A program made the position numbers and the translations under genes. A DNA stretch of 59,757 nt from positions 1 to 59,757 of the IMG/VR virus record IMGVR_UViG_3300028840_001210; one strand, given 5' to 3'. Within the stretch, counting starts at the first letter, position 1, and each line of letters starts with the position of its first letter. This DNA is from a virus. Lineage: Duplodnaviria > Caudoviricetes. Below are positions 5,547 through 59,757 of this stretch, one piece after another. Below the pieces are notes generated by a model, which saw only the letters and a program-made list of their open reading frames with translations, ran no database searches and was not told where the DNA came from.

Positions 5547-5552
5547 ACTCCC

Positions 5553-6702: not shown

Positions 6703-6803
6703 GAAAGATCTTGTCAAAAAGTCTTGACATTCTCTCGCGCCTGTGCTATAATGTGTCTGTTGGACCTGACCGCACGACCACACACATTATAGGAGAAAAC
6801 GAC
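6703..6803 (+). promoter_or_regulatory. Repeated early promoter/leader cassette, copy 1
   Basis: AAAGATCTT..GTCTTGACATTCTC-N5-CCTGTGCTATAATGTGTCTGTTGGACCTGACCGCACGACCACACACA; -35 at 6724, -10 at 6747. Confidence 0.9.
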
Positions 6804-7307
6804 ATGAGCTACAAACCACCACGCACCACCTCGCGCGAGCACTCTTTCGAGATCATTGGCCATCTGTTTGGCTTGCTCGAAGCGTACTTCGACTATGGTA
6901 CTGACTGCCTGGCTGCGAAGGGCCGCATGCGCACGTGCTACCAGCACAGACTGGTCGACGACGAAGCTGCGAAGCGCTGCGCGCGCATTGACCAGCTATA
7001 CGCGCTTCTCGATCACGACTGGATCGTCGAGTGCCATCTCGCCAGCGACGTCGACGCCAACGCGGCTGGCGCTTGCGAGACTATGCGACTGGTAAGCTGC
7101 ATGCAGAAGGTAAAGCCAGAGCGCACAGTCTTGGCCGAGTGCGACCTCTCAAAGACGCCAGAGCAAGAGCGCGCAGAGCATCGCGCAGAGCTGCGCGAGA
7201 TCGTCGACGAAGCGCCAGCGCCCACGCCGGCAGGCTGCACGCCAGAGCACTTGGAAGAGCTGAAAGACCAGCTTGGCAAAGAGTACCCCCTAGATCGATC
7301 AGAGTAG
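6804..7307 (+). CDS. Hypothetical protein in a moron-like cassette inside the lysis module
   Basis: AGGAGA SD; own promoter and terminator. Confidence 0.75.
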   Translation: MSYKPPRTTSREHSFEIIGHLFGLLEAYFDYGTDCLAAKGRMRTCYQHRLVDDEAAKRCARIDQLYALLDHDWIVECHLASDVDANAAGACETMRLVSCMQKVKPERTVLAECDLSKTPEQERAEHRAELREIVDEAPAPTPAGCTPEHLEELKDQLGKEYPLDRSE

Positions 7308-37507: not shown

Positions 37508-38869
37508 CTATCCTCCCGACGATCCACGCGCCCAACCAGCGCGCGAGCTTGCGCCATATGCGAGAGCGCCAGCCGCGATCGAGTCTGGCAAGTGGTCGAC
37601 ACGTCCCCCACTGTACACGTCAGCGCGCGACGCGAAAAGGTGCTCGCCATACATGGACTCGATTCTAGGCGCTCTGATCTCTTCTCTTTCTATCGCTGCG
37701 ATATAGTTGCTTAGCATGTTCGATCTCGGCTTTCCAACCATCTGGACGCCAGTCGCATCGACTTCGATATAGTCGTCGATCACGTCGCCGAGTCCAGTCC
37801 CATCGTGCGCGGCTTGCCCTGGGTACATACGCACGCGATCATTGTACTTTTGGACCATCAGCGGCCAAGGCTGTCGGCCAGTGCGCTCGTATGCGACCAA
37901 GCGCCATGGCATGCAGTCTGTGCGAAACGTGATGATCACAGTATAGTCTTTCTCTTTCGCCCAGTCGGCGCCGGTCGTGTACCTGGCTCGCTTCTCTGGC
38001 GGCTCGACTATGATCAGCTCGTCGAGTCGACCTTCGTACTGTCCGAGCGACGCGTCGAACATGATCTCTGTTTTGGCTGGTACGATGGCGCGCGATCCCG
38101 GCGCTGGATCTTGGAGATCATACTCTGCATCCCACATGGCCTGGGTAACAGTCTGTCGCTTCGCTTCCAAGTTGCTGCGCAAGAGCCAGCCATGCGGCTC
38201 TAGAGTCTCCTTATAACACCACTGGTACACTGGCCAGCCACGCACCTTGGCGCGCTTTAGGATCTCTGTCATCGTGCCTTGCGCGTACTGATGTGTCGAC
38301 GACAGTACTGTCTGGCTCTTTATGTTGTGCGTGTCCATCGGCTGGCCGAGCGCGCTGTCGAGTATGATTATGCTCGTTTCGTCGGCCTCATCCAGACGTA
38401 GGCGCTGTGGGTGTGGACCACGTACCGACGCAGTCGACGCCATCAGCGCGCGTATGTGATTGCCGTATACGAGCTTGGTCTCGCGCTTGACCGGATCCGA
38501 CGCGAGAAGGTTTACAGGCGCGCGCTTGTAGTCCCAAAAGTTGGTCATGTACTCGTGTACTCGCGCGCTTTGCTCGCCAGATCCACCAAGTACACTGACT
38601 GACGCTTTCAGCGAGCACGCTTCGACCAGACCCAAGAGAGCGAGCAAGAAAGACTTGCCACCAAAGCCGCGCGATGCTTTCCACACTGCCACTGGCGAGC
38701 GCGCAAAGTACGCGTCGGCGAAAGCGCGCCATGGCGTGGTATGGTTCTCGCAGACTTGCACGTCTGGGATCTGGACGCCGAAAGAGACGCGCACAAACTC
38801 GCGCAACGTCTCTTCTTTTCTGATCGGCAGCTTGAACCTGTGTACTTTTTTGTGTCTACTCTTCGCCAT
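37508..38869 (-). CDS. terL: Terminase large subunit
   Basis: SRGFGGKS Walker A, VRG, LRLDEAD Walker B, GADWAK..DYT, DGTGLG, PDSI.A. Confidence 0.95.
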   Translation of the reverse strand: MAKSRHKKVHRFKLPIRKEETLREFVRVSFGVQIPDVQVCENHTTPWRAFADAYFARSPVAVWKASRGFGGKSFLLALLGLVEACSLKASVSVLGGSGEQSARVHEYMTNFWDYKRAPVNLLASDPVKRETKLVYGNHIRALMASTASVRGPHPQRLRLDEADETSIIILDSALGQPMDTHNIKSQTVLSSTHQYAQGTMTEILKRAKVRGWPVYQWCYKETLEPHGWLLRSNLEAKRQTVTQAMWDAEYDLQDPAPGSRAIVPAKTEIMFDASLGQYEGRLDELIIVEPPEKRARYTTGADWAKEKDYTVIITFRTDCMPWRLVAYERTGRQPWPLMVQKYNDRVRMYPGQAAHDGTGLGDVIDDYIEVDATGVQMVGKPRSNMLSNYIAAIEREEIRAPRIESMYGEHLFASRADVYSGGRVDHLPDSIAAGALAYGASSRAGWARGSSGG

Positions 38870-39428: not shown

Positions 39429-40865
39429 TTACGACTCGCCAGCGATCTGGCTGGCCAGCTTTGCGCCAGCGCTCCCACCATGACGCAAGAGCGATCGAGT
39501 GCTGGCTCGCTCGATCGCTTCTCTCTTTATGTAGGTATGAAGGTATCGTGTCGGCAGTGTCGACCACGTGTACACGCCAAACAGGCGATCTATGTCGAGA
39601 TACTTTTCGAGCGTCGCGCGTCTGACGTTACCACTCGACGACCAGAAAGCGCGAGACGTCGAGAGCTGGCGAAAGAGCGAAGCGTCGCGCAGCTCGCCAC
39701 GCACAGCCAAGAGCCAGAGAGTGATCGTCGACAGTCCTTCTGGACCAAACGCGCTGGACACTGTCACAGTGTCACTATTGAACAGGCGACGCTTGAACGT
39801 GCCAAGCGCGCAGTGCGCAGCCTGCAGGCGAGTGATCGCGCTCTCTCTGTAGTCTTCGTACCTGGCTGGCCATACAGCGGCTGGCGTACATGGCATGGGT
39901 TTGAAAGGTGTATGTGTGATGTCTATGCGAGTACTCGCGTCATGCATGGGATCGCCTTTGTACTCGACGAAAGAGTCAAAAACAGACTCCCAAGTCGAGC
40001 GCATCTCGTGCCAGTCGTCGAGCGTCTCTGTCGGGTAGCCAATGATATTCATGACTCTGATTTTATACAGTGGAGCTGTGCGGCGAAGAGTACCAGCGAA
40101 GAGAGCGACCAGCATGTCACGTGAGATCGGTTTGTTGACCATACGTCGCAAGCGCTCCGAGAGTCCATCGCAGCCGATCAGCATCGAAGAGCCTGGCCAA
40201 GAGTCTGGACGATCGAGATCTAGCTCAAAGATCGTCGACTCTTCTGCAGACGCGACTGTCGCAGTGCGCGAGCTTGCAAACTTTTGCGCGCCGCCCATGT
40301 TGCGTCGAGTCCACGAGTACTGGCAAAACAGACACTTGCGATCGCAGCCTATCGCGATCTCTCTGTATGGCTTGCCATTGGCGAGCTGGTACGTGTACGG
40401 GTATGGTCGCTCGGCCTGTCTGTACTGGTACTGGCCATCTGGATCAAAGTCGTGCGAGTAGCAGATAGCTGGATCGTCGAGCTGGTCGCCAGCCGCGATC
40501 GCTTCGACCAGTGGCACGATCAGATCTTCGCCACGACCAAAGACAAAGACGTCGCCATACTCCAAGAAAGGGAGCACATTGTCGACGCCCGGACCACCGA
40601 TTATGGTTTTGTAGTCGCCTTTGGGCCATGAGACGCGCTCGGCGACAAAGCTGTACCAGTCATACGCAGAGACGATCGACACGAGCACGACGTCAAAGTC
40701 GGCGACTGTTGGCGCGCTGCAGTACCCACAGACATGGCCAGCTCTCTGCAGCGCGTCGCGTATCATCTCTAGGCCTGGCCAGACGCGCACGTCGTAAGAC
40801 TCGGTCTTGTACGCGCTCTTGGCATAGCTATCTTGCACGTATGCAGCGATCTGCAGACTTTTCAT
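39429..40865 (-). CDS. Radical SAM enzyme with B12-binding-like N-terminus
   Basis: IIGGPG, GRGE, GCDRKCLFCQY (CxxxCxxC), DGLSERLR..VNKPI, IIGYPTET, PFKPMPCTP. Confidence 0.85.
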   Translation of the reverse strand: MKSLQIAAYVQDSYAKSAYKTESYDVRVWPGLEMIRDALQRAGHVCGYCSAPTVADFDVVLVSIVSAYDWYSFVAERVSWPKGDYKTIIGGPGVDNVLPFLEYGDVFVFGRGEDLIVPLVEAIAAGDQLDDPAICYSHDFDPDGQYQYRQAERPYPYTYQLANGKPYREIAIGCDRKCLFCQYSWTRRNMGGAQKFASSRTATVASAEESTIFELDLDRPDSWPGSSMLIGCDGLSERLRRMVNKPISRDMLVALFAGTLRRTAPLYKIRVMNIIGYPTETLDDWHEMRSTWESVFDSFVEYKGDPMHDASTRIDITHTPFKPMPCTPAAVWPARYEDYRESAITRLQAAHCALGTFKRRLFNSDTVTVSSAFGPEGLSTITLWLLAVRGELRDASLFRQLSTSRAFWSSSGNVRRATLEKYLDIDRLFGVYTWSTLPTRYLHTYIKREAIERASTRSLLRHGGSAGAKLASQIAGES

Positions 40866-41443
40866 GCGTCCACTCGAAAGGAAAAGCCGCACTTGGGGCA
40901 GTGGTACGTGCTCGACTCTGCGTCGCCGGCCTCGGCGCTCGCGTCTTCGCCCCCGAGATCCACTTCGACTGGCTGGATCTCGACTTGGATCTCTTGGATC
41001 TCGACTGGCGTCCAGAACGGCACGAAGTCGATCCCACCTTGCATGTCGGCGAGAAGTCGCTCGCCATCCAGATCATAATTGACCTCTGACAAGCGATTGT
41101 CGACGTAGGCCAGCGTGCGGCCCTCTGGCGTCTCTATGTCGAGATCGTCGCGCTTGGTCGCCACCAAGAGCTGGCCTTCTGTCTCGATCAAAACGAGCTG
41201 CGAGATCCCTGCAGCCTTGCACTGTGCGAGCGTCTTGTTACCGCCGATCGTCTTGAGATTCTTGTCGAGCAAGATCCCACGACCAGCGCCAAAGCGCTCG
41301 ATCGACTCGGCGAGCATCGCGTTACCGCGTGGCGTGCCTTTGTTGGCATTGTGCGAGTCTGGTATCGCTTCGTCAATGTCGACGATACGCACGCGCACAC
41401 CTGGCGCGACTTCGTGTACTGTCCCTGGCAAAGTGTCAGACAT
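40862..41443 (-). CDS. ParB/Srx N-terminal domain protein with C-terminal zinc ribbon
   Basis: N.N, L..SI..FG..R.I, IGGNKT, YVDNRLSE, CPKCG. Confidence 0.8.
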   Translation of the reverse strand: MSDTLPGTVHEVAPGVRVRIVDIDEAIPDSHNANKGTPRGNAMLAESIERFGAGRGILLDKNLKTIGGNKTLAQCKAAGISQLVLIETEGQLLVATKRDDLDIETPEGRTLAYVDNRLSEVNYDLDGERLLADMQGGIDFVPFWTPVEIQEIQVEIQPVEVDLGGEDASAEAGDAESSTYHCPKCGFSFRVDA

Positions 41444-41457
41444 GGTATACCCCCTAT

Positions 41458-41537
41458 GAAAGAAAGGCGCGACGCGATGACCAGTCGCGAACGCGCCCAA
41501 AGTGGGAAGATCGGAGAAACGATACTTCGCCACACAC
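41458..41537 (-). ncRNA. Putative multi-target antisense sRNA / terminated leader of the packaging operon
   Basis: Promoter at 41572-41544; 5' GUGUGUGG and UCGUUUCUCC complement early-gene leader boxes; GGCGCG..CGCGCC plus UUUCUUUC terminator. Confidence 0.65.
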
Positions 41538-41543
41538 AGATCC

Positions 41544-41572
41544 ATTATAGCACGGCGCTGTCACTTCGTCAA
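41544..41572 (-). promoter_or_regulatory. Leftward promoter
   Basis: TTGACG-17-TATAAT with TG; shares CTTGACGA..CCGTGCTATAAT with the promoter at 29992-30021. Confidence 0.8.
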
Positions 41573-41603
41573 GGGCCAGACGCCAGAAAAGCAAAACTCG
41601 ATC

Positions 41604-41703
41604 GAAAGATCTTTGCAAAATGTCTTGACATTCTCGCGAGCCTGTGCTATAATGTGTCTGTTGGACCTGACCGCACGACCACACACAGAGACGGAGAAAC
41701 CAC
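41604..41703 (+). promoter_or_regulatory. Early promoter/leader cassette, copy 2
   Basis: -35 at 41625, -10 at 41648; identical downstream block. Confidence 0.9.
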
Positions 41704-41940
41704 ATGGACGCAGTAACAAAGCTCACCAAGCTAAACCAGCTCACTGCCACAAAATTCGATCGCGAGTACAAGCGCCTGACAGCGCTCACACTGGACCAGG
41801 CGAGCCAAGTACTGGCCGAGTACAAAGCGGTTTATGGCGACGACTTTGTCGTCTCGATCGTCACAGTCGCAAAGCTGCGCGCAAAGACTGCAGCGCTCGC
41901 CGAGCTGGCCGAGCAAGGGATCGAGATAGTAGGCGCGTAA
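41704..41940 (+). CDS. Early hypothetical protein
   Basis: GGAGA SD after the cassette. Confidence 0.75.
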   Translation: MDAVTKLTKLNQLTATKFDREYKRLTALTLDQASQVLAEYKAVYGDDFVVSIVTVAKLRAKTAALAELAEQGIEIVGA

Positions 41941-42006
41941 GACCAGACCACAGCGCGAGCTGGCCAAGTCGACCAGCTCGCGCCCACACACACAGGAGAA
42001 ACGACC

Positions 42007-42483
42007 ATGGCATACGTTACAGACATCTGCTCGCTAGACTACCAACTAAACCAGCCCACTTGGCTACACAGCCAGCTCGATCGCCAGTCGCGCGACGTCG
42101 TGCTCTTGCGCGCGTCACAGCTTCATTATATCGCCATTCTCGGCGACGCGCTGCGCATCCAAGAGATCGACGACTCGTACAGCGTGGTCGACGTGCCTTT
42201 CGCAGACGCGACACATGGCACGCTGCGCACGCCCATGACGCTGGTAGACATCGCCGACAGAGACGACGTCGTCGCTGCGCTTCTCGCAGAAGGGACACGA
42301 GTACAAGTCGTCGAAGCTGTCTCGCTTCGCCGCCAGAATATCATAGAGACGATCGTCGTCAATGCGATGCGCGATCAGTACCACAGCTTGGCCGAGCGCG
42401 TCGACCAGCTCGACCAGTACCAGCAAAACCAAGTCAACCAGATCGCGTACATGCTGCGCGACTTTGGCTACTCTGTACGCTAG
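42007..42483 (+). CDS. Early hypothetical protein
   Basis: CCACACAC and GGAGAAACGAC leader. Confidence 0.75.
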   Translation: MAYVTDICSLDYQLNQPTWLHSQLDRQSRDVVLLRASQLHYIAILGDALRIQEIDDSYSVVDVPFADATHGTLRTPMTLVDIADRDDVVAALLAEGTRVQVVEAVSLRRQNIIETIVVNAMRDQYHSLAERVDQLDQYQQNQVNQIAYMLRDFGYSVR

Positions 42484-42543
42484 AATCGACCTGAGCGCGC
42501 TGGCGAGAGCTGGCGCGCTCACACACAGAAACGGAGAAACGAC

Positions 42544-42696
42544 ATGACGACCACGACCACGACCAGACGCAAGACCTCGAAGGCTCTTTTCAAGTGCATG
42601 CAGTGTGGACGCAAGTTTCGCACGACCAAGAGCGCAGAGCGCGCCATGATGCGTGGCTGTCCCAAGTGTGGCGCGAGCGACGTCGATCTCGCATAG
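42544..42696 (+). CDS. 50-aa zinc-ribbon protein (absent from the ORF track)
   Basis: MTTTTTTRRKTSKALFKCMQCGRKF...CPKCGASDVDLA; GGAGAAACGAC leader. Confidence 0.8.
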   Translation: MTTTTTTRRKTSKALFKCMQCGRKFRTTKSAERAMMRGCPKCGASDVDLA

Positions 42697-42710
42697 CTCG
42701 CACGACCACA

Positions 42711-42743
42711 GAGAGCGCTGGCCCTGGCTGGCGCTCTTTTTTT
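42711..42743 (+). terminator. Intrinsic terminator
   Basis: GAGCGCTGGC/GCTGGCGCTC stem plus T7. Confidence 0.8.
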
Positions 42744-42758
42744 GTTGCCAGATTGATC

Positions 42759-42861
42759 GAAAGATCTTTGCAAAAAGTCTTGACATTCTCTCGCGCCTGT
42801 GCTATAATGTGTCTGTTGGACCTGACCGCACGACCACACACACAGCACTTGGAGAAACGAC
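42759..42861 (+). promoter_or_regulatory. Early promoter/leader cassette, copy 3
   Basis: -35 at 42780, -10 at 42803. Confidence 0.9.
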
Positions 42862-43509
42862 ATGAAGCAAGCGACGACCTACTACCAGCTACTTGGCCAG
42901 AAACTGTACGAGCACAAAGTCACCTCGCGATACGGCCAGATACAAGCCGACGTACAGCTCGGCCCTCGCATCACAGACGACCAGACCAAGATCGAGATCC
43001 CTTCGTACTCGTACCATGGCGACGCTGTCGAATGGTGGAAGCTCATGGGCTTTCGCTTCGATCGCGATCGCTTGGTCTGGTATCGCGACTTGGCAAAGCC
43101 AGCCAAGGGCCAGAGCAAGCCACACCGGCCAGAAGTCTGGCTCAAGTGCGCGAGCCGCAAGTATGCAGAGTTTTGCCCGATCTTCGAGCACTTGAACTAT
43201 ACGCGCGACAGCTCGGTACGCGCGCAGCACTTCCCCTTCGAGTTTCTCGCCATTGGCCAAACGTTCTACATGTACGACCCGGCCATCGACGACGACTTGG
43301 TCAAAGCTCGCACCAAGAAGGACCATGGCGAGCTTCCCAAGAATCTGGAAGTCTGGATCGTCTTGGACGAAGGCGAAGATCTGCGCGACTACTACAGTGT
43401 CGCAGTCGACACGCTCAAAGAGCAAAGCGCAGCCAGCGAAAAGCCAGCGACCATGAGTCGCCAATTGTACGAGATGGACAAGCGCGCAAGAGGGATCAGC
43501 ACCGACTAG
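42862..43509 (+). CDS. Early hypothetical protein
   Basis: Leader boxes; MGFRFD....WY motif. Confidence 0.75.
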   Translation: MKQATTYYQLLGQKLYEHKVTSRYGQIQADVQLGPRITDDQTKIEIPSYSYHGDAVEWWKLMGFRFDRDRLVWYRDLAKPAKGQSKPHRPEVWLKCASRKYAEFCPIFEHLNYTRDSSVRAQHFPFEFLAIGQTFYMYDPAIDDDLVKARTKKDHGELPKNLEVWIVLDEGEDLRDYYSVAVDTLKEQSAASEKPATMSRQLYEMDKRARGISTD

Positions 43510-43589
43510 ACCACACACAGACGCGCGAGCTGGTCGACTTGGCCAGCTCGCCACACAGAGCGCAAAGAGCGCCAGAATGGAGAAACGAC

Positions 43590-44384
43590 ATGAGATACCA
43601 CTTCCACAGACAAGGCACGCCAGACGTCGAGACGTGCGAAGGCACGCGAGCGCAGCTCGCACAGAAGATCAAGAGCGATTGCCAGTACACGATCGATCCC
43701 CTTCCCAAATCTGGAAGCGCGCCACGCGTCTTGATCTTTATGACGCCAGTCAGAGCGCGCTATGGACTACTGGTTACAGAATGGCTGGATCTGCGCTTTC
43801 TTCCCTTCGACGTCGCGCGCGAGCTGGCTGTCGAGTGCGTCGCTTTTTTTGCTGGTCGCCACTCGAAGAGCTGTCGCACTCGCTTCGTCGACGCGATCGC
43901 GCGTGCCGGCAGCTATGCGATCGCGCATCCACGCTTTTGCAGAGAGTGCCATGGCAATGGTTTCTTGATCGACACATACGATCCCAGTCCCCATGGCGTG
44001 TCGCTCGGCTCTGGCTCGCTCGACGCTTTCGAGACGTGCCATGACTGCGTCGACGCTAACAAGTGTCCACGCTGCAGCGCGCCACTGGATCGACTCGCAG
44101 AGCGCTGCACACACTGTACATGGGACTTTGAGCGCCAGAACGATCCCGAGTGCATCGACTTTTATCCAGACCACTGGCCAGAGTGCGACTGTCATGACGC
44201 TGGCGAGATGGCTGTACGCAATGCGCAGCCTCTGGCCGAGCGCGCAGACGTGCAAGTCTATCTTTGGGAAAAGCCAATCGAAAAGATCGACTTTATCGCT
44301 GGCGATCTGTATCGCGTACACTTTGACGATGGCGAGCGCGTCGAGCTGCCTGGGTACTCGAAAGTGCTGGCGCTGCGAGTGTAG
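43590..44384 (+). CDS. Early zinc-finger protein
   Basis: CRECHGNG, CHDC, CPRC, CTHC; GGAGAAACGAC leader. Confidence 0.75.
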   Translation: MRYHFHRQGTPDVETCEGTRAQLAQKIKSDCQYTIDPLPKSGSAPRVLIFMTPVRARYGLLVTEWLDLRFLPFDVARELAVECVAFFAGRHSKSCRTRFVDAIARAGSYAIAHPRFCRECHGNGFLIDTYDPSPHGVSLGSGSLDAFETCHDCVDANKCPRCSAPLDRLAERCTHCTWDFERQNDPECIDFYPDHWPECDCHDAGEMAVRNAQPLAERADVQVYLWEKPIEKIDFIAGDLYRVHFDDGERVELPGYSKVLALRV

Positions 44385-44409
44385 CGCGCGAGCTGCAGCT
44401 CGACGACCA

Positions 44410-44443
44410 GAGAGCGCTGGCCAGAGATGGCTGGCGCTCTTTA
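44410..44443 (+). terminator. Intrinsic terminator abutting a parS-like site
   Basis: AGAGCGCTGGCCA/TGGCTGGCGCTCT stem plus TTATGTTT. Confidence 0.7.
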
Positions 44444-44459
44444 TGTTTCCCGGGAAACA
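44444..44459. promoter_or_regulatory. parS-like palindrome (5 of 6)
   Basis: TGTTTCCCGGGAAACA, 23 bp upstream of a -35 box. Confidence 0.8.
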
Positions 44460-44467
44460 CTCGATCA

Positions 44468-44560
44468 ATCTGGTAAAATGTCTTGACATTCTCTCGCACC
44501 TGTGCTATAATGTGTCTGTTGGACCTGACCGCACGACCACACACACAAGGAGATCGAGCA
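44468..44560 (+). promoter_or_regulatory. Early promoter/leader cassette, copy 4
   Basis: -35 at 44483, -10 at 44506. Confidence 0.9.
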
Positions 44561-44809
44561 ATGCAAGTACACTACTTTGTCGACTGTCAACCAGTACACG
44601 CAGATCAGTTTTTTGGCCAAGGCTGGCAAGACTTTGACGTCTTCGAGCTGGTCGAAGTCGCTGTCGCGCCAGTACATGGCGAGCTGCAGCGGTGGCATGT
44701 TTCTGTCGCTTTCGAGTCTCGGCTCGCTTTCGTACAGCACGCGCAGCACGCCGAGCACGTTGTACGGGTACAAGAGCGGGCCTTCGCTGGCGAGCTTTCT
44801 TCGCTGTAG
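44561..44809 (+). CDS. Early hypothetical protein
   Basis: AGGAG SD. Confidence 0.7.
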   Translation: MQVHYFVDCQPVHADQFFGQGWQDFDVFELVEVAVAPVHGELQRWHVSVAFESRLAFVQHAQHAEHVVRVQERAFAGELSSL

Positions 44810-44832
44810 ACCACACACAGAGAGAGACGACC

Positions 44833-45072
44833 ATGTCGACCACAGAGACCAAGATCAAACTGACAAGGATCTGCGCTGGACTTTACAAGTACACGCGCAG
44901 CGATGGCAAGACGTACACGATCGAGCAAGGCGACGATCCAAGCTCAAGCTGGTATAGAGAATGGATCGTGCGCAGCGATCGAGATCCCTTCGACTATAGC
45001 GATCCCAAGTGGACGCTGCGCGAGTGTCGCGACTGGCTCGCCGAGTCAGAGAGTCAGATCGCGAGCGCATAG
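44833..45072 (+). CDS. Early hypothetical protein
   Basis: CCACACACAG leader; TLRECRDW. Confidence 0.7.
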   Translation: MSTTETKIKLTRICAGLYKYTRSDGKTYTIEQGDDPSSSWYREWIVRSDRDPFDYSDPKWTLRECRDWLAESESQIASA

Positions 45073-45113
45073 GCTCGCGTCCAAAAAGGCCAAGAGAGCT
45101 GGCGAGAAAGTCA

Positions 45114-45215
45114 AAAGATCTTCACAAAAAGTCTTGACATTCTCGCCAGCCTGTGCTATAATGTGTCTGTTGGACCTGACCGCACGACCACACACACAAT
45201 ACTTGGAGAAACGAC
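45114..45215 (+). promoter_or_regulatory. Early promoter/leader cassette, copy 5
   Basis: -35 at 45134, -10 at 45157. Confidence 0.9.
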
Positions 45216-45467
45216 ATGCAGACAGTCCAGATCGATGGCAAGACTTACAGACTACACAGCGACGTACTAGGCGCAGAAGGCCAGCACCAAGACGCGCGCG
45301 ACGCTTTCGCCGAGCTTGGGATCACTGGCTTTTATAACGCGCTCGCCCCACGTCGCCGCAACTACTTCGAGCAAGTCTTCATTCTGAGCGATGGCTCTGC
45401 GATGCTCGCAGACTCGCGTATCAGCTCGCAAGTCTCGCGCAAGCTGGCCGAGAAGGCGCGCGCATAA
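45216..45467 (+). CDS. Early hypothetical protein
   Basis: Leader boxes. Confidence 0.7.
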   Translation: MQTVQIDGKTYRLHSDVLGAEGQHQDARDAFAELGITGFYNALAPRRRNYFEQVFILSDGSAMLADSRISSQVSRKLAEKARA

Positions 45468-46003
45468 TGAAGACCACGACATGGCGCTACCTCACAACCC
45501 AAGAGCGCGAGATCGCCAGCGCTTTCGCGAGCGAGATCGATCTCGTGCCAGCCGAGCCAGTCGCAGTGGGCTGCGTCTCTGGCGTCTGGTACTATGCGCA
45601 CGTCGACGACTGGAAAGACAGCGAAGCGACGCTCTCGACAGTGGCGCTGGACGATGGCGACGAAGAGCCAGTCGTCGCGTCGAGTCTCGACAAGCACCAA
45701 ACAAAGCCGGTCGAAGTGCTCGCCACGAGACCACACAAGACCAAAGACGATCGCGTCGCTGTGTACTACTCGCGACGCTGGCGTCAGTCTGGCTGGTACG
45801 TCAAACAGTGCTGGCGCTGCAAAGTGGATCTCGTGTACTTGTCGCGCGTCCAGCCACATGGCGACGTCTGCGTCTGGCACGTCTGCCCCAAGTGCCAGCA
45901 CGAGAGCCGCCCCATGTACCCTGGGTACAATCCACCAAAGCCCAAGCACGGTGGACGCCAGCATGGTCACTTGCGCATGCGTCGCGCGAACAGTGGGTAC
46001 TAG
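45467..46003 (+). CDS. Early hypothetical protein with zinc ribbon
   Basis: TAATG coupling; CWRC...CPKC. Confidence 0.65.
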   Translation: MKTTTWRYLTTQEREIASAFASEIDLVPAEPVAVGCVSGVWYYAHVDDWKDSEATLSTVALDDGDEEPVVASSLDKHQTKPVEVLATRPHKTKDDRVAVYYSRRWRQSGWYVKQCWRCKVDLVYLSRVQPHGDVCVWHVCPKCQHESRPMYPGYNPPKPKHGGRQHGHLRMRRANSGY

Positions 46004-46085
46004 CACAAGTGGACAAACGAGAGCGAGTCGACGCTCGCTCTCGCTATCATACACCAAGCACAACACACATAGAAAGGATCGACCA

Positions 46086-46298
46086 ATGAAAGACCAGAGC
46101 GAAAAGAAAGTACAAGTAGCATACCGGATCAGTCCCAAGCACGTTGTCATGCTCGACGAAGTCGCGCTCGCGCTTGGCTTGACCTGGGGAGGGGGACCAA
46201 ACAAAAGCGCAGCGATCGAGCGCGCGATCGAGATGGCACATGGCCAGCTCGCGCAGATACGTGGCGAGCAAGTGCTCGCCAGCGAACCAGCCGACTAG
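46086..46298 (+). CDS. Ribbon-helix-helix DNA-binding protein
   Basis: KVQVAYRIS....LDEVA....NKSAAIERAI. Confidence 0.65.
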   Translation: MKDQSEKKVQVAYRISPKHVVMLDEVALALGLTWGGGPNKSAAIERAIEMAHGQLAQIRGEQVLASEPAD

Positions 46299-46322
46299 AG
46301 CCACACACAAAGGAGAAACGAC

Positions 46323-47330
46323 ATGGAACACAGCACACATGGACTGGTAGCACGCAAGATCTTTTTTGCTGGCTCGACAGACGCGCAGCTCTGCGAGATG
46401 CCACTCGCGAAAGCTGCGAAACAGATCGAGCTTATGCAGCTCGCGCCCGAGCGCGTCGAGATCGCGATACGCTGCGCAGAGCTTGACGTCTTCTCTGTAC
46501 GCGAGCAAGGCGATCTCTGTCTCAAAGGCGATCCCTTCGAGCTGGCTGCAGTCGCGATCGCTTGGTCATACGAGACAGTCAACCACTGCGATCGACTCTT
46601 GACAGACGCGTCGCGCTTGGTCTGGCGCTCTCTCTTTGACTATGAGATCGCAGCGTACCCAAGCGACGCAAAGCCAGACGATCCAGATCTCGCTGTCTGG
46701 TTTGGCGATCAGTGGTACTATGCAAAAGACGAAACCGACGACGAAGGTATCGGCGACACGCAGATCAAGATCTGCACTCGTGGCGACGAAGACTCTGGCG
46801 ATCTGGATCGCGTCCCGATCACAGTACAGCATGCCGCATCATGGTCGAGAGTCGAGCACCAAGCGCATGTCGAGTACCTATCGCGCACACTCAAAGAGCA
46901 CAAAGAGCACGTCGAGCACGAGCAAGTACTCGCAGAACGCAAGCGAGTCGCGCGAGAGCTAGTCAAGGCCTGGATCGTCTCACACCATGGGGTGAGCATG
47001 GACATGATCGAGCCAGTGCTCTCGCTCGACGTCTCTGGCTCGATCGACGACATACTCTGTACGATGGACGTACCAGCGCATACGATCATAAAGTGGCGCA
47101 TGTCCAAGATCACAGATCAGATCCACGATCTGCAGCACTGGACCGCGTCGACTGACTTTATGGTCTTCGATCGCGCTGGTCGCCATCTCGAAGACTTTGC
47201 ACACCTCGGCGACGCGCTGCGCTTGGCTCGCGTCCAGCACCTTCGCGAGCTGTCGACGATGGCCAGCGCCCTCTTGGGTAGCGACCAGACAGAAGAGACG
47301 CTCGAAGAGCAAGTCGAGCGCGCACGATAA
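46323..47330 (+). CDS. Early hypothetical protein
   Basis: Both leader boxes; 335 aa. Confidence 0.75.
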   Translation: MEHSTHGLVARKIFFAGSTDAQLCEMPLAKAAKQIELMQLAPERVEIAIRCAELDVFSVREQGDLCLKGDPFELAAVAIAWSYETVNHCDRLLTDASRLVWRSLFDYEIAAYPSDAKPDDPDLAVWFGDQWYYAKDETDDEGIGDTQIKICTRGDEDSGDLDRVPITVQHAASWSRVEHQAHVEYLSRTLKEHKEHVEHEQVLAERKRVARELVKAWIVSHHGVSMDMIEPVLSLDVSGSIDDILCTMDVPAHTIIKWRMSKITDQIHDLQHWTASTDFMVFDRAGRHLEDFAHLGDALRLARVQHLRELSTMASALLGSDQTEETLEEQVERAR

Positions 47331-47346
47331 AGTCGACCAGAACGAC

Positions 47347-47381
47347 AAGAGCGCTGGCGAGATGGCCAGCGCTCTCTTTTT
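47347..47381. terminator. Terminator between convergent operons
   Basis: AGAGCGCTGGC/GCCAGCGCTCT stem plus CTTTTT. Confidence 0.75.
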
Positions 47382-47395
47382 GTGTCTCGTGGTCG

Positions 47396-47908
47396 TCAAG
47401 CGCGCAAACAGTCTTCGCAGTCTGGCATGCCAGTCTTGCACAAGACGCACTTGTCTGCAGTCTTCGACTTTGTCTCTCTCTTCGCAGCCAGTACCATCGT
47501 CCAGACAAAGACGAAGAAGCACGCAGCCACAAAAGCGCATATGCTCATGATCTGAAAGTACACTCGCCACGCTCGGCGCCGCTCGACGCCCTCGAGCACT
47601 GCAGTGATCTGCGCTTCCAGTAGCACGCGTCGCGCGTGCGCGTCTGTGTTGGCTGTGATGCGCTCGACGTCTGCGTCGCCTTGCGCGCGTATCTCTTCGA
47701 CGCGTGCTCGCGCGAGCGCTTCGTCTGTGCGCGCCTGTTGTGTCTGCGCTTCCAGCTCTGCGATCTTTTCGAGCGCAGCGACGTCGACGCCAGTACTCTG
47801 GCGCTGGCCATCGTTCACAGTGACCCCAACAAAGAGACATGCAGCCGCGATCATGAGCACACCAAGACCAAAGACCACGCGAAGCGCTCTTCCTTCTGCT
47901 ACCAACAT
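47396..47908 (-). CDS. Two-TM coiled-coil membrane protein
   Basis: Hydrophobic ends around a heptad region; AAGGGGG SD. Confidence 0.65.
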   Translation of the reverse strand: MLVAEGRALRVVFGLGVLMIAAACLFVGVTVNDGQRQSTGVDVAALEKIAELEAQTQQARTDEALARARVEEIRAQGDADVERITANTDAHARRVLLEAQITAVLEGVERRRAWRVYFQIMSICAFVAACFFVFVWTMVLAAKRETKSKTADKCVLCKTGMPDCEDCLRA

Positions 47909-47919
47909 GATACCCCCTT

Positions 47920-48408
47920 CTAGTGTATGACTTCTATGTCTGGCGCTGGCTGTGGATCGTCGATCGTGTATGGCATGCGACCGAGATCGATCTCTTGCGA
48001 GCCGCCAGACTCGCGACCAGTGATCAGGCGCTGCGCGCCATAGATGCGCACGTCGCTGGCCTGGATGCCGGCAGTATAGAGCGAGTGCGCGATCTTGTCG
48101 AGCACGCGATCCATGCCGCTTTCGACCTTGCCCACTTGGACAGATGCGAAGCGATAGCCGAGCCACATGGCGACGCCAGCGCACACTGGGATCGCAGTGC
48201 TGGCCAGCATCGCCCACGCGATCGCGACGCCCTTGCTCTGTATGGCGAGCCAGCTATACCAGACCAAGTACAGCGAGATCGCCAGCGTCGCAAGTAGCGC
48301 GACTGCGAGCCCGATCCCGACCACGCCGAGCACGTCGAGCGCTTGCTTGATCTTGCTCGGCTGTACTGGCTGTGGACCTTCGACGCTCGTGTATGATACT
48401 CTCTTCAT
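47920..48408 (-). CDS. Membrane protein downstream of the FtsK-like gene (Spd-like by position)
   Basis: Two TM helices; ATGA-coupled to the ATPase. Confidence 0.6.
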   Translation of the reverse strand: MKRVSYTSVEGPQPVQPSKIKQALDVLGVVGIGLAVALLATLAISLYLVWYSWLAIQSKGVAIAWAMLASTAIPVCAGVAMWLGYRFASVQVGKVESGMDRVLDKIAHSLYTAGIQASDVRIYGAQRLITGRESGGSQEIDLGRMPYTIDDPQPAPDIEVIH

Positions 48409-49832
48409 GCTTCGTTCCTTTCTTGACTGTCTGTCTGTCTACCAAAAGCGCGCGCGTCTTCGTCGCCAGCTCGGCCTGTCTGGCCAGCTCTGTGCGTCTC
48501 TAGCCAGACAGACAGCTCTGCGCTGCCCTCGAGCTGCGACCAGACGTCACGACCAAGAGCCAAGAGCCAGCGCGCTCGCGACGCGCCTGGCTTGCGCTCG
48601 CTGTCCAGTCGCTGGACCATTGCCGGCCTTCCATCGCCAGCGATCGCTGCGCGCATGGTCGCCTGCAATTCGTCCACTGTCGCTGGCTGTCGCCGACTTG
48701 GTCGCTGTGGTACGTCTTGGCCGACGTCTTCGAGCTGGACCTCTGGCCAAGCATCGAAGAGCCAGCGCTCTATGTCGCGCTGCGCGACTTGTGCCATGAG
48801 CTTCGCTTCGTCGAGTATGGCGACCTGTACGCGATGGACAGCGCCGGGACTGACTGTGTACGCATCGCCAGCGCCCAAGAGACGATCAGCTCTTGGAGTC
48901 GACGACCCCACAGCCACGCGCGACGCGTCGAGATCGTCGACTCGCAGCGCCAGCTTGCCCACCAAGCACCGACGCGTCGAAGCGTCGCCGAAAGCGTCGA
49001 GCGCCGGGTGTTGTGTGGCACAAACGAGATGGACGCGAGCCGCTCGGCCTTCTCTGGCGATCTTGGCCATCAGACCAGCGATAGTACGATCGTTTGTCAG
49101 CTCTTGGAACTCATCAAAGAGCACGACCAAGGGATCGCACGCCAGAGCTGGCTTTTCATGGTGCTCGTATCGCTCGCGCATAGTCTTCGCAGCAAAAGCC
49201 AGAGCGCTGATCACTTGCTCGCGAGACGTCGCCACTGGCCCGACCACACCGGCCAGACGCTGGCACGAGCGCAGCGAGTCGCCATACTTGCCATCGATCA
49301 GCACGAGCCTGGCTCGCTCTTTCTCTGTCGCGTGGCGTGCGAGCTGGTAAGCAATAGAGCGCATGGCGATCGTCTTGCCAGATCCCGGCGTGCCAGAGAT
49401 CAGCACGTGAGGGATCGCGTCGCAGAGCTGCATGGCGATCGTCTGGCCGTATTCGTTCATGCCCACGACAAAGACGTCTGGTCGTAGCGGGTATGGCGCG
49501 AGATCTCCAAGTGCGACAGAAGTCATGGCCAGCTCGCTCGGCCATGCCGCTTCCACGCGCACATGGCGCGACTGCATAAAGACAGAAGGATCGCCAGCAA
49601 ACGACCACGGCACAAACTGACGCAAGAGCGCGCTGTCGTGCTTGCGCAGCGCCTGCAGCGTGCGACCAGCGTACATGCCAGCGTCGAGCAAGAGAGCGCC
49701 AGCTCTAGGCCCGCATACAGCGCGCAAGTCTCGAAGCTGGAAAGCATCGCCGAAAGCGCCACGACCAGCCGCACTGTACAGCGCCTGACCCCACTGTCGC
49801 AAGTAGTCAGATCTGATCTGTCGCGTGTCCAT
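48405..49832 (-). CDS. FtsK/SpoIIIE (TraB-like) DNA translocase ATPase
   Basis: PHVLISGTPGSGKT, LIDGK, VVLFDEFQEL, GRAARVHLVCATQHP, LLGAGD. Confidence 0.9.
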   Translation of the reverse strand: MDTRQIRSDYLRQWGQALYSAAGRGAFGDAFQLRDLRAVCGPRAGALLLDAGMYAGRTLQALRKHDSALLRQFVPWSFAGDPSVFMQSRHVRVEAAWPSELAMTSVALGDLAPYPLRPDVFVVGMNEYGQTIAMQLCDAIPHVLISGTPGSGKTIAMRSIAYQLARHATEKERARLVLIDGKYGDSLRSCQRLAGVVGPVATSREQVISALAFAAKTMRERYEHHEKPALACDPLVVLFDEFQELTNDRTIAGLMAKIAREGRAARVHLVCATQHPALDAFGDASTRRCLVGKLALRVDDLDASRVAVGSSTPRADRLLGAGDAYTVSPGAVHRVQVAILDEAKLMAQVAQRDIERWLFDAWPEVQLEDVGQDVPQRPSRRQPATVDELQATMRAAIAGDGRPAMVQRLDSERKPGASRARWLLALGRDVWSQLEGSAELSVWLETHRAGQTGRAGDEDARAFGRQTDSQERNEA

Positions 49833-49983
49833 CGCTGGCCCTTTCCACAAGACGCGCTTGGCCTTCTACCACAGTCAGATCGTACTTTTTGACGATCATG
49901 TTTTTGAGCGCTTTTGTGTACGCTGGCAAGCAAGCCAGAAAGCCAAGCACGAAACCAAAAGCAAAAGCCCAAAGACCAGTCAT
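49807..49983 (-). CDS. Small single-TM protein (paralogue B)
   Basis: AFGFVLGF...YDLT...GQ. Confidence 0.6.
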   Translation of the reverse strand: MTGLWAFAFGFVLGFLACLPAYTKALKNMIVKKYDLTVVEGQARLVERASDGHATDQI

Positions 49984-50153
49984 GGCTGTCTCTCTCTCTT
50001 TACCCAAGTAAGCTGGCCATACTGGCGCGTGAGATCATGCGTCTTTGTCTTGTCAGAATAACACTTCGCCAGCCAGCCAAAGCCAAGTATAAAACCAAAC
50101 GCGCCAGAACAGAAAGCGATCAAAAGTCCACCGCAAAAAGTAAAAAAGTCCAT
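49980..50153 (-). CDS. Small TM protein (paralogue A; absent from the ORF track)
   Basis: MDFFTFCGGLLIAFCSGAFGFILGF...HDLTRQYGQ; AGGGGGA SD. Confidence 0.6.
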   Translation of the reverse strand: MDFFTFCGGLLIAFCSGAFGFILGFGWLAKCYSDKTKTHDLTRQYGQLTWVKRERQP

Positions 50154-50157
50154 GTGT

Positions 50158-50475
50158 CTATCCCCCTATAGTTTGCATAGCTTCGAGTATGTCGTCGTCG
50201 ATCACGACTTCGATGGCTGGAACGTCACCGGGCCCTGACACCTCGAGCGGCGTGCTAAACATGTCCCCAAGATACTCGGCGAGACGCTCGGCCAGCTCGC
50301 GCAGCGCTGGATCGTCGAGTATGCACTCGCGCGCGTCGCGCTCTTGCGCGGCTTTGTCGAGCGTCTCTCGGATCCTTGTCGATCGCTCGTTTCGTGGCAA
50401 GCTGGCCAGCCACGCAGCGAGCGACGGGTACTCTTCCGGACAGTACGAAAAGGTCACTCTGGCGATCTTGCGCAT
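50158..50475 (-). CDS. ParR-like adaptor / DNA-binding protein
   Basis: RVTFS...L..WL..LP..ERS..IRE.L and an acidic tail; in the ParM operon. Confidence 0.6.
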   Translation of the reverse strand: MRKIARVTFSYCPEEYPSLAAWLASLPRNERSTRIRETLDKAAQERDARECILDDPALRELAERLAEYLGDMFSTPLEVSGPGDVPAIEVVIDDDILEAMQTIGG

Positions 50476-50699
50476 GTCTCGCTCTCTTCTGTCCAGCCTG
50501 GCTGGCCAGCTTGCCACTCGCGACGATCCAGCTTTTTCTGGCACTCTGGACAAGGATCGTCTGGCGCTGGTATCCAGTCGAGATCCGTGTCGACACTGTC
50601 ATCGATGTAAGTATCGGCAGATCCACAGTAGATACACTCTTGCGCGCCAGTGTCTGGCCAGCACTCGCCGCACACATTGCAGACTCTGATCTCTTCCAT
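50454..50699 (-). CDS. Small zinc-binding protein
   Basis: Three CxxC pairs. Confidence 0.55.
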   Translation of the reverse strand: MEEIRVCNVCGECWPDTGAQECIYCGSADTYIDDSVDTDLDWIPAPDDPCPECQKKLDRREWQAGQPGWTEESETCARSPE

Positions 50700-50740
50700 G
50701 TTCACACTCCGTAACATGTCTGGCGCTCTTTGCTTCTCAC

Positions 50741-51787: not shown

Positions 51788-51930
51788 GACTTTCCCCCTT
51801 ACCAGTCCAAAAGCGCACGACTGTGCGCACGAGTAAAAAGATCATAGAACCAAGTCCCCCGACGACTGCGAACCACGACCAAGCGATCGCCAGTCTCGAC
51901 GTCAAGAGCGAGACTAAAAGCTCGACAGAG

Positions 51931-52542: not shown

Positions 52543-52575
52543 GCCCACCTCCATGAATACCTGAAACCGATGCCC

Positions 52576-52719
52576 TATAATACCATAATATGACACGCGT
52601 GTCAACAGAAAACCAAAAGAAGCGCATTAAAATCTGGTAAAATCACTTGACAAGTACTCTCGACCTGTGATATAATTGTCTTGACTTTGACCACGACCAC
52701 ACACACTGGGAGAAACGAC
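52576..52719. promoter_or_regulatory. Divergent promoters with palindromic operator
   Basis: Leftward TTGACA-17-TATTAT overlapping TGACACGCGTGTCA (52591-52604); rightward TTGACA (52647)-18-TATAAT (52671), a degenerate cassette copy. Confidence 0.75.
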
Positions 52720-53301
52720 ATGACACGCAAGCTGGTTTCCATACTCTGGATCGAGACATCTGGCGACGAAGTAAACGCGCGCATGCGTATGCTGAAACTA
52801 TGGCGCGACGAAGAGTATATCGCAGACGACATGCAGCCAGAGATCAGCTACTGCACAGAAGAGATCGAGCCAGAAAACCACCACAAAGCGATCGACTTTT
52901 GCGCAGCGTACAGATACAAGCCGCATGGCGTCTGGTACGCTGGCCATCCGGGGATCGCCTTCGCCCCGCATACCCAAGAGATCAATGGCATGACAGAGAC
53001 AGCACGCGCGATCAGAGACTTGGCTCGCGCTGGCACGTCGATCCATGTCCAGTACGAGCACATTATACCAGCGCCAGTACGCTTTGTACGCAGCTCGCGC
53101 AACATGACATACAGGTACATCGCGAGCAAGCGCACAATGAAAGATCTGCAGAGACTGCGCGCAAAGTATCGCGACGCTGGCGAGCTGGCATGGACTCCCG
53201 AAGACGTCGCCAGCCACGCGCGCGATCGCTTTGGACGTCCACAGGCGACATACCCCCTGGCCGACTGGACAGTCGCATGGCCTGGCCAGATGCGCTGGTA
53301 A
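52720..53301 (+). CDS. Hypothetical protein
   Basis: Both leader boxes. Confidence 0.7.
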   Translation: MTRKLVSILWIETSGDEVNARMRMLKLWRDEEYIADDMQPEISYCTEEIEPENHHKAIDFCAAYRYKPHGVWYAGHPGIAFAPHTQEINGMTETARAIRDLARAGTSIHVQYEHIIPAPVRFVRSSRNMTYRYIASKRTMKDLQRLRAKYRDAGELAWTPEDVASHARDRFGRPQATYPLADWTVAWPGQMRW

Positions 53302-58929: not shown

Positions 58930-58977
58930 ATCACGCGCGCGCTATGTATTGACAGAATAGCGCGCGCGTGATAAAAT
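58930..58977 (+). promoter_or_regulatory. Initiator promoter with -35 in the loop of a 16-bp inverted repeat
   Basis: Arms 58930-58945 and 58957-58972; TTGACA at 58949, 17-bp spacer, TAAAAT at 58972. Confidence 0.7.
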
Positions 58978-59016
58978 CTAGAAACAAAACCACACACACA
59001 GCGAAAGGACCAGAGC

Positions 59017-59757
59017 ATGATCACGATCTTTAATGGATGCGAGATCCAGCTCGACAGCGCGCAGACGCGCATATACGCGCAAGTGTCTGTCGCACTGCGC
59101 GATCACATAGTCGACTTTAATACTGGCAAGAGCCTGTCGCCTTTTGGAGTCTTCATGTGCATCGCTTTGCACGTCGACCAGTTTGGCTGGTCGTACCCAT
59201 CGCGAGCCACGCTCAAAGCCAAAACTGGGATCAAGACTGACGACTCTTTGACGACCTGTCTGCGACACTTGGTCGCCATGCGCATAGATGGCCATAGAGT
59301 GCTTGCCATCTATCGAGATCAGCGCACAGATGGCAAGTTTGGCTTGTACTGCTATCGCGTCTTCCCTGACGCTTTCGACGACCAGCTCGCCAGCGCGCCC
59401 GAACGCTTCGAGAAGCTCGTACACTGGACCTACAAAGATCCAGCCGAGCGCCAGAAAAGATCCAGTACTGGATCTTCCAGTACTGGACAATCTAGCGAAC
59501 CAGTACCCAATGAACCAGTACCGGATCATGACGCCATGAAGTATAACCATGATCAAGTAGAACTAGAAGAAGGAGAAAGTACCAGCGCTGATCCTGGCGT
59601 GCTTTCCAGCGAAGACGCTGCGCGCGGCCCTCTAGAGATGGCTGCAGAGTGCCAGCGTCGCAGCGCTGGCCAAACGCAATGGACTGTACCCACGAGCGCT
59701 GGCGGCTCTACAAAGCGAGTCGACGCTATGCTGCGCGCGTGGATAGGTAGCAAGCGC
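59017..59757 (+). CDS. Replication initiator, N-terminal HTH part (continues to 471; absent from the ORF track)
   Basis: VFMCIALHVDQFGWSYPSRATL...TG (HTH_36-like); open to the window end. Confidence 0.8.
   Translation, partial: MITIFNGCEIQLDSAQTRIYAQVSVALRDHIVDFNTGKSLSPFGVFMCIALHVDQFGWSYPSRATLKAKTGIKTDDSLTTCLRHLVAMRIDGHRVLAIYRDQRTDGKFGLYCYRVFPDAFDDQLASAPERFEKLVHWTYKDPAERQKRSSTGSSSTGQSSEPVPNEPVPDHDAMKYNHDQVELEEGESTSADPGVLSSEDAARGPLEMAAECQRRSAGQTQWTVPTSAGGSTKRVDAMLRAWIGSKR
59458..59522. repeat. Putative origin iterons inside the initiator gene
   Basis: CCAGTAC x4 (59462, 59477, 59500, 59515); palindrome AGATCCAGTACTGGATCT. Confidence 0.65.
59614..59757. repeat. Terminal direct repeat of 1-144
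   Basis: Identical sequence. Confidence 0.97.

Follow-up and report, generated by a model that had tools for sequence, protein, structure and literature searches.

A predicted terminated leader at the head of a phage late operon carries exact complements of two boxes shared by early-gene leaders

Results

The late-operon leader and its two complements

The DNA analyzed here, referred to as the window, is the complete virus record IMGVR_UViG_3300028840_001210 (59,757 bp, 57% G+C, with direct terminal repeats), whose source is an uncultured marine phage, probably a phage-plasmid. Its minus strand carries a single long operon of roughly 34 kb, the late operon, that runs from 41443 down to ~7402, and on the plus strand a series of small genes without assigned function, the early genes, begins at 41704. 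The subject of this study lies between the two, where the late operon is preceded by a predicted leader RNA of ~80 nucleotides (nt) containing two exact complements to the early-gene leaders, one centred on a 6-nt hairpin loop and the other at the 5' end with half of its length in the stem.

A previous sequence-only reading of this DNA had placed a TTGACG-17-TATAAT promoter on the minus strand ahead of the late operon, and a consensus scan recovered it at 41572-41544 with 11 of 12 matching positions. Its -35 box stands back-to-back with that of an early promoter on the plus strand (41625), the two being 52 bp apart, in agreement with the same reading. The RNA predicted to start here reads GUGUGUGG-CGAAGUA-UCGUUUCUCC-GAUCUUCCCAC in its 5' part and is laid out as 4 free 5' nt, hairpin 1, 3 free nt, a GC-rich hairpin and the tract UUUCUUUC, an arrangement of ~80 nt with a hairpin and a U-rich end that had also been claimed and that the sequence bears out. 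Folding of the 80-nt RNA gave -34.0 kcal/mol (z -4.56), with none of 200 shuffles as good; the minimum free energy structure has an ensemble frequency of 0.64 and is identical to the centroid, and in the predicted folds each hairpin forms on its own. The hairpin 1 loop, UUUCUC, and the first 4 nt of the RNA are predicted to be fully unpaired. The terminator-like tract and the start codon of the ParB-like gene are separated by 14 nt, and a simple terminator scan does not list the 41458-41498 hairpin. Taken together, the promoter and the modelled folds suggest that the locus is very probably a terminated late-operon leader acting in cis. The description of the RNA as the attenuated leader of a packaging operon thus holds for the terminated layout and needs amending for the operon, which opens with the ParB-like and radical-SAM genes and only then reaches terS/TerL.

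The 5' end and the loop of the predicted RNA are exact complements of two boxes found in the early leaders, box A (CCACACAC) and box B (GGAGAAACGA), as the sequence-only reading had stated. The locus is the sole place in the genome where the two boxes occur in swapped order and without a start codon, which also agrees with that reading, and they fall at +1 to +25 of the opposite-strand transcript. The joint occurrence of both boxes within 30 nt is expected by chance 1.2e-4 times in the whole genome. The leader under the 52605 promoter, which heads the second minus-strand operon and is the one other operon leader checked, has no mirror boxes. When 80-nt windows were slid along the DNA and scored for 8-mers complementary to the leaders, the locus came first among non-leader windows, with 13 distinct 8-mers compared with no more than 10 elsewhere, a count that discriminates poorly.

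The early-gene leaders share two boxes on one strand

With up to one mismatch allowed, box B matches the whole genome 14 times compared with 3.92 ± 1.88 expected, a number reached by none of 100 shuffles. Nine copies are exact, eight of them on the plus strand and one on the minus strand (4906-4915). In seven of the eight plus-strand copies C(C)ATG comes next, at the genes starting at 42007, 42544, 42862, 43590, 45216, 46323 and 52720, and the eighth is that of the late-leader locus (41513-41522), without a start codon. Box A has 13 matches, all on the plus strand (1.63 ± 1.28 expected; 0 of 100 shuffles reach 13), with 11 copies before listed gene starts, one at the locus (41530-41537) and one at 56770. 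The leader of gene 42544 has CACACAC only and not the full box A. Twelve early starts therefore carry box A or CACACAC, accompanied by an exact box B in seven, by a variant in four (6804, 41704, 44561 and 44833) and by neither in one (59017), a distribution that reproduces the gene list of the sequence-only reading. The 11 exact or variant copies of box B at these starts all lie on the plus strand, 1-2 nt before the ATG. At all late gene starts examined the early box is absent, and the Shine-Dalgarno sequences (SDs) there are AAGGGGGA, GGAGG or GAGGT, so that the phage has two classes of ribosome-binding site, an early GGAGAAACGAC class and a late AAGGGGGA-type class. The strict strand bias of the boxes, and a position set at a constant distance from start codons and not from promoters, in cassettes and promoter-less leaders alike, argue for a role at the level of RNA.

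Two box copies lie outside these leaders. The box A copy at 56768-56782 (plus strand) directly follows an ATG (ATGACCACACACATG) instead of standing upstream of an SD, and represents either a coincidence within coding sequence or a leader out of place. The minus-strand box B at 4906-4915 is inside a plus-strand open reading frame (4258-5469) whose mRNA would contain the complement of box B internally; a rough estimate puts the chance expectation at about 0.1 such copies, and it may mean nothing.

The early leaders are of two types. The first is a repeated cassette, in which the stretch transcribed from a TTGACA-17-TATAAT promoter is invariant and has CCACACAC at its end; copies were found at 41625, 42780, 44483, 45134 and 6724, and a diverged copy at 52647. 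The second type lacks a promoter; here a strong hairpin with no U-tract precedes the CA tract and the SD. Both boxes are unpaired in all five of the early leaders that were folded. Hairpins lacking U-tracts stand directly before the CA tract and SD at 41950-41983, 42492-42521, 43525-43551 and 46260-46284 (plus strand), with leader folds of -17 to -28 kcal/mol, and in these models they look like processing or stabilizing elements rather than terminators. A perfect palindrome, CTCGCGAG, occupies the spacer of the early promoters between -35 and -10 (41631-41648 and other cassettes, plus strand); judged from its sequence, it is a candidate operator for the Cro/C1-type helix-turn-helix (HTH) protein encoded at 52258-52605.

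Predicted pairing of the leader RNA with the early leaders

Opening the complements, or seeds, within the folded leader RNA was computed to cost 7.2 kcal/mol for anti-box A and 5.4 kcal/mol for anti-box B, the loop alone costing 0.0. After opening costs on both sides were deducted, the better seed for each of the 12 early leaders had a net energy between -4.5 and -11.7 kcal/mol. Taken singly, the seeds ranged from -11.7 to +5.1, two being unfavourable, anti-box A at 42544 (+3.6) and anti-box B at 59017 (+5.1). By cofolding, the 12 early leaders had a mean binding of -7.5 compared with -2.5 for 19 late-gene leaders (Mann-Whitney p = 8.8e-5), and 12 other plus-strand starts had a mean of -4.9.

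The reading that we prefer, with a probability of roughly 0.4, is that the attenuated leader of the late operon also pairs with the early leaders and lowers their translation. On this model the near-consensus host-type promoter would start the RNA at ~41537, and the 5' hairpin followed by the terminator-like hairpin and U-rich tail would end most transcripts at ~80 nt unless termination is overcome. Pairing with the early leaders would be made either by the free short RNA or by the 5' end of the read-through late mRNA. The loop UUUCUC would nucleate pairing that extends to UCGUUUCUCC and covers the early ribosome-binding site GGAGAAACGA, and the 5' GUGUGUGG would cover the CCACACAC tract just upstream of the SD, either contact hindering 30S binding and thereby lowering early-gene translation. 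Because the two contacts are non-colinear, they would probably be made singly, or by two molecules of the RNA. In a plasmid prophage, a constitutive short RNA could add to immunity. We consider unlikely the more far-reaching proposal that the ~80-nt default product of the late promoter is a trans-acting anti-leader RNA that reads the CA tract and the extended SD and shuts the early regulon (~11 messages) of the phage-plasmid. The terms "master regulator," "immunity" and "early-to-late switch" that the sequence-only reading attached to the RNA would likewise be suggestions drawn from sequence. Coordinates of the features are collected in Table 1.

Table 1. Features of the late-operon leader, the first late genes and the early-gene leaders
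Feature	Positions	Strand	Basis or remark
Predicted late-operon promoter, TTGACG-17-TATAAT, TG before -10	41544..41572	-	consensus scan 11/12, near-consensus sigma-70
Predicted ~80-nt leader RNA	41458..41537	-	start inferred 7 nt after -10; end inferred at U-rich tract
Anti-box-A seed GUGUGUGG, RNA nt 1-8	41530..41537	-	exact complement of CCACACAC; nt 1-4 unpaired, last 4 in hairpin 1 stem
Hairpin 1, 12 bp, two 1-nt bulges, 6-nt loop UUUCUC	41502..41533	-	-13.8 kcal/mol, z -4.63, 0/200 shuffles
Anti-box-B seed UCGUUUCUCC (anti-SD + spacer), RNA nt 16-25	41513..41522	-	exact complement of GGAGAAACGA; 6 nt in loop, 4 in stem
Terminator-like GC-rich hairpin (41465-41498) + UUUCUUUC	41458..41498	-	-20.2 kcal/mol, z -3.02, 2/200 shuffles as good
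SD (AGGGGG) + ATG (41443) of ParB-like gene	41441..41455	-	sequence
ParB-like gene, first of late operon	40862-41443	-	PHROG 620, E 1.4e-14; match from residue 17 of 193-amino acid form
Radical-SAM gene, second in late operon	39429-40892	-	relatives at up to 47% identity carry PF04055/PF19864
Terminase-like gene (terS/TerL after radical-SAM gene)	37508-38869	-	many relatives at 54-64%
Early cassette 1: TTGACA-17-TATAAT, CCACACAC, GGAGAAACCAC (variant), ATG 41704	41625..41706	+	divergent from late promoter
Leader of gene 42007: hairpin, CCACACAC, GGAGAAACGACC-ATG	41984..42009	+	
Leader of gene 42544: hairpin, CACACAC, GGAGAAACGAC-ATG	42520..42546	+	
Cassette 2, both boxes, gene 42862	42780..42864	+	
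Leader of gene 43590: CCACACAC, hairpin, GCCACACAG, GGAGAAACGAC-ATG	43511..43592	+	
Cassette 3, box A + variant SD GGAGATCGAGCA, gene 44561	44483..44563	+	
Leader of gene 44833: box A + variant GAGAGAGACGACC-ATG	44811..44835	+	
Cassette 4, both boxes, gene 45216	45134..45218	+	
Leader of gene 46323, both boxes	46301..46325	+	
Diverged cassette, both boxes, gene 52720	52647..52722	+	76% identity
Promoter + leader, box A only, gene 59017	58949..59019	+	
Distant cassette copy: box A + GGAGAAAACGAC, gene 6804	6724..6806	+	

The early-leader code in distant relatives

Searches of a phage collection by megablast and tblastn returned no match, and neither did a search of viral contigs with the radical-SAM gene as a single query. 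The best non-self TerL match in the collections searched was 64% identical, and 80 of 272 viral loci were compared in the TerL alignment. Among these 80 loci, the structural module is common only to L135 (G002, complete, 68.8 kb), L166 (G001, complete, 60.7 kb) and L155, at 27-59% amino acid identity; L105 has TerL and the ParB-like gene in common with the window, and no divergent early region in the part covered.

The early leaders of G001 consist of repeated promoter cassettes (TTGACA-17-TTTAAT) that combine a CA-rich tract with an extended SD of fixed sequence, GGAGAGACGAgATG (27506-30088, 42002), which differs at two positions from the GGAGAAACGACATG of this phage, although TerL identity is only ~52%. 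Those of G002 likewise form repeated cassettes with a CA-rich tract and GGGAGG, in the form ...CACUACACACCGGGAGG...AUG. These sequences indicate that the early-leader code is old in the lineage and the mirror RNA specific to this phage or to unsampled close kin.

The idea that a leader of CA tract and SD is general to the TerL group was dropped, the 80 TerL loci giving 62 such leaders compared with 95 in shuffles, and counting of 9-mers over related loci was uninformative, being dominated by coding and palindromic words. In viral contigs, the pattern of box B, a 3-14-nt gap and box A occurs in 46 stretches, most of them 31 nt long with a 13-nt gap, compared with 7 nt here, and none of the four stretches compared (L008, L019, L039 and L048) has similarity to the window. 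The 25-nt locus string has no match in metagenome contigs, and a 20-nt cassette string has two, both unrelated. In a raw count, five viral contigs with no detectable protein similarity to the window (L098, L099, L100, L101 and L102) have CACACAC...GGAGAAACGACATG. Two of them, L098 and L099, contain several more leaders, built as (C)CACGGAGAAAC-N(1-3)-ATG and preceded by GC-rich hairpins. On sequence grounds, this type of leader may be common to the phages of one host group.

Metagenome runs from sediment and seawater contain the phage DNA. Within 40800-53000, contigs from three DNA runs are identical to the window, without a substitution, indel or joint, two of the runs (X1 and X2) looking like one data set, and they therefore offer no natural variation for an analysis of co-variation.

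Evidence against pairing in trans, and alternative explanations

A number of results weigh against the pairing model. In the predicted fold, half of each seed is buried in hairpin 1, and a hairpin that begins after only 4 free 5' nt also suits a plain mRNA-stabilizing leader. The seeds stand in the same 5'-to-3' order as the boxes, which makes colinear pairing impossible; the sequence-only reading had already noted that pairing both seeds is non-colinear, and cofolding agreed, using one seed at a time and never both seeds on both boxes. When the first 36 nt of the RNA were shuffled, binding was -8.4 ± 2.2 compared with -7.5 for the native sequence, and 61 of 100 shuffles were equal or better in the cofold. 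Shuffles thus bind the early leaders at least equally well, suggesting that much of the predicted affinity reflects GU-rich against CA-rich composition; the shuffle also destroys hairpin 1 and cofolding cannot model loop kissing, making this a harsh but real test. The stoichiometry is also demanding, because a single promoter would have to supply at least 11 leaders that are driven by at least six consensus promoters. The search of Rfam gave no family at gathering score in the whole window, C4 included, and at E ≤10 the region 41200-41900 yielded four chance-level matches, none of them C4, the best on the leader RNA being RybB (14.7 bits, E 3.3).

Comparison with relatives points the same way. 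No close relative was found in phage, viral-contig or metagenome collections, and the seed-target covariation that the sequence-only reading had looked to in related phages is not seen in G001/L166 and G002/L135, whose late leaders lack the RNA. The late leader of G001 is short, with a sense CA tract and SD, and that of G002 is short, with a sense CACACAGAUAGGAGAUAG; neither has a terminator or mirror boxes. In the complete G001 genome all five GGAGRRACGA sites are true leaders and none is on the reverse strand. Because the relatives have the early leaders and no mirror RNA, the boxes predate the RNA, and the fixed extended ribosome-binding site is kept without it. The claim that one RNA represses a dispersed regulon is partly supported: exact complementarity, strand bias and open early boxes favour it, and the shuffles, the buried seeds and the relatives without the RNA oppose it.

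These last three results are equally what would be expected if the leader acted in cis only, attenuating or stabilizing the late mRNA, with read-through by an antitermination step and no effect in trans. The mirror boxes would then be a by-product or a decaying relic of recombination, and the early boxes translation signals in their own right, like the SAS (start-associated) motifs of Cluster K mycobacteriophages. In favour of this, a promoter, hairpin, terminator and SD are arranged directly before the first late gene; the five to six near-identical cassettes indicate active recombination or conversion, with the locus ~65-90 bp from cassette 1; and SAS/ESAS motifs exist without a known partner in the available part of their description (PMC3203893). 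A relic is harder to reconcile with boxes that remain intact (10 of 10 and 8 of 8 positions) though the start codon and the other parts of a leader are gone, with a swapped order that simple duplication or deletion does not produce, with their precise placement, one at the 5' end and one in the apical loop of a hairpin whose stability is significant, and with the low chance expectation given above. We regard the cis-only account as a tentative alternative with odds well short of even.

The direction of the effect could also be the reverse, with abundant early leaders opening hairpin 1 of the late leader, altering late termination, stability or translation and so helping to turn the late genes on. 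The identical complementarity applies, the at least 11 early leaders under at least six consensus promoters outnumber the single late leader, and pairing must melt hairpin 1, whose 5' arm is overlapped by both seeds. We found no alternative fold in which the 3' arm, once freed, would compete with the terminator hairpin, and no precedent is known to us for early leaders opening a late one, which leaves this an improbable explanation.

The asymmetric stoperators of mycobacteriophage L5 are repressor sites that stop elongation, and the boxes might similarly be double-stranded DNA sites for a phage protein such as one of the Cro/C1 HTH type, serving as roadblocks or downstream operators, the locus copy then shutting the late operon. 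This would account for the boxes at the locus having the same DNA orientation as all others and for those in the cassettes lying just downstream of promoters, and an HTH protein is encoded in the genome (52258-52605), but its chance is slim given that promoter-less leaders keep the distance from box to start codon and not to a promoter, that box B is itself an SD plus spacer, that box A is an 8-nt CA repeat unlike an HTH operator, that the corresponding tract in relatives is merely CA-rich in composition and that the separate palindrome in the early promoter spacers is a better operator candidate.

Gene content and neighbouring observations

The terminase in the minus-strand operon is followed by glycosyltransferases and a tape-measure gene (16029-19016). 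A second minus-strand block (52605-47396) encodes the Cro/C1-type HTH protein, an actin-like ParM and an FtsK-like ATPase, and a further ParB and a ThiF-type protein are encoded elsewhere in the genome. No integrase was seen among the scanned proteins, which together with the HTH protein, ParM and ParB fits a plasmid prophage. No tRNA genes were found in the whole 59,757-bp window.

The radical-SAM gene also occurs in 45 otherwise unrelated viral contigs, sometimes beside a ParB-like gene. These loci (L053-L097), obtained with an alignment query, were rejected as phage relatives, since only that gene, and sometimes the ParB-like neighbour, is common to them and the window. Ahead of the terminase, the pair could represent a mobile module for DNA modification.

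From an ATG at 41545, an uninterrupted frame of 34 codons crosses the whole leader and joins that of the ParB-like gene, so that automatic gene callers may annotate the late leader as coding (40862-41545, minus strand). We rejected the leader as coding sequence, because this ATG shares bases with the -10 box, which puts it upstream of the predicted RNA start, and the ATG at 41443 has its own SD.

A second unit of promoter, hairpin, linker and terminator is present at 5468-5580 (minus strand). Its TTGACA-16-TATAAT promoter (12 of 12 positions) is followed by a hairpin of 7 bp, an unpaired linker, AUCUCCCCUGAAA, and a terminator hairpin stronger than any other in the region (fold -33.2 kcal/mol, z -2.8). 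The word proposed as its target, AGGGGAGAT, shows no enrichment (10 copies compared with 7.3 expected; 18 of 100 shuffles reach 10), and the modelled hairpin may be the shared terminator of convergent gene blocks.

Discussion

The late-gene leader of phage lambda is made up of the promoter PR', the 6S RNA (~194 nt) and the terminator tR', with antitermination by Q. The locus described here resembles it in that a predicted strong promoter of host type stands immediately ahead of the late operon and leads into a predicted intrinsic terminator, which would yield a short default RNA. It differs in the length of that RNA, ~80 nt compared with about 194 nt, and in that a scan of 50 proteins against Pfam and/or PHROGs, in which most early proteins match nothing, gave no antiterminator family, Q-like or other. 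Mirroring of other leaders is not known for the 6S RNA of lambda.

Phage antisense RNAs offer a second comparison, and the CI RNA of phage P4 has c4-like features (Rfam C4 family). In the available part of its description, c4 of P1/P7 is a short structured phage RNA whose loop-displayed complements lie over a ribosome-binding region and prevent translation (PMC12197685). As far as that account goes, the predicted leader RNA is similar to c4 as a short structured RNA from the head of an operon, with a complement to a ribosome-binding site centred on a loop, in a phage that probably persists as a plasmid. Several features set it apart. It has no covariance-model match. The c4 RNA, in the part of the account available, has one target, downstream in its own transcript, whereas the boxes here are on at least 11 other leaders of the opposite strand, and no sense copies of the boxes occur on the minus strand within the late operon (7402-41443). 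One of the seeds is at the 5' end and not in a loop, and the order of the seeds is not colinear with the targets. The phage antisense RNAs that we know of (c4, CI, sar and OOP) each control one or two messages.

The early boxes themselves have a parallel in the SAS/ESAS motifs of Cluster K, which in the available part of their description are asymmetric, SD-containing motifs just before the ATG of non-structural genes, with a partner that could be "either RNA or protein" (PMC3203893). Insofar as that source can be compared, both systems have an SD-containing repeat in one orientation at non-structural gene starts and a second conserved element upstream. The sequences differ, GGAGAAACGAC here compared with the Cluster K consensus 5'-GGGATAGGAGCCC (PMC3203893), as does the host group. 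In this phage the second element is a CA tract that follows a hairpin or a cassette leader, and the predicted late leader offers a candidate RNA partner.

In its proposed logic of one phage factor acting on many early mRNAs, the model is closest to T4 RegA, a protein that, in the available part of the source, competes with the ribosome at the initiation regions of ~30 early mRNAs (PMC3014915). RegA, as portrayed there, recognizes loosely defined A+U-rich sites, whereas the factor proposed here would be an RNA with exact 8-10-nt complements. A full-text literature search gave, in the portions of papers it covered, no description of a phage RNA aimed at a shared early-leader code.

Should the role in trans fail, the locus would still document a lambda-like terminated late leader, two classes of ribosome-binding site and repeated promoter-leader cassettes in a phage lineage that is otherwise unannotatable. 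If the role in trans is true, an RNA that reads the leader code of a whole temporal gene class would be a new regulatory layout and an RNA counterpart of T4 RegA, which could serve both as RNA-based immunity in the plasmid prophage and as an early-to-late switch, and it would provide a candidate partner for the unexplained start-associated motifs of other phages.

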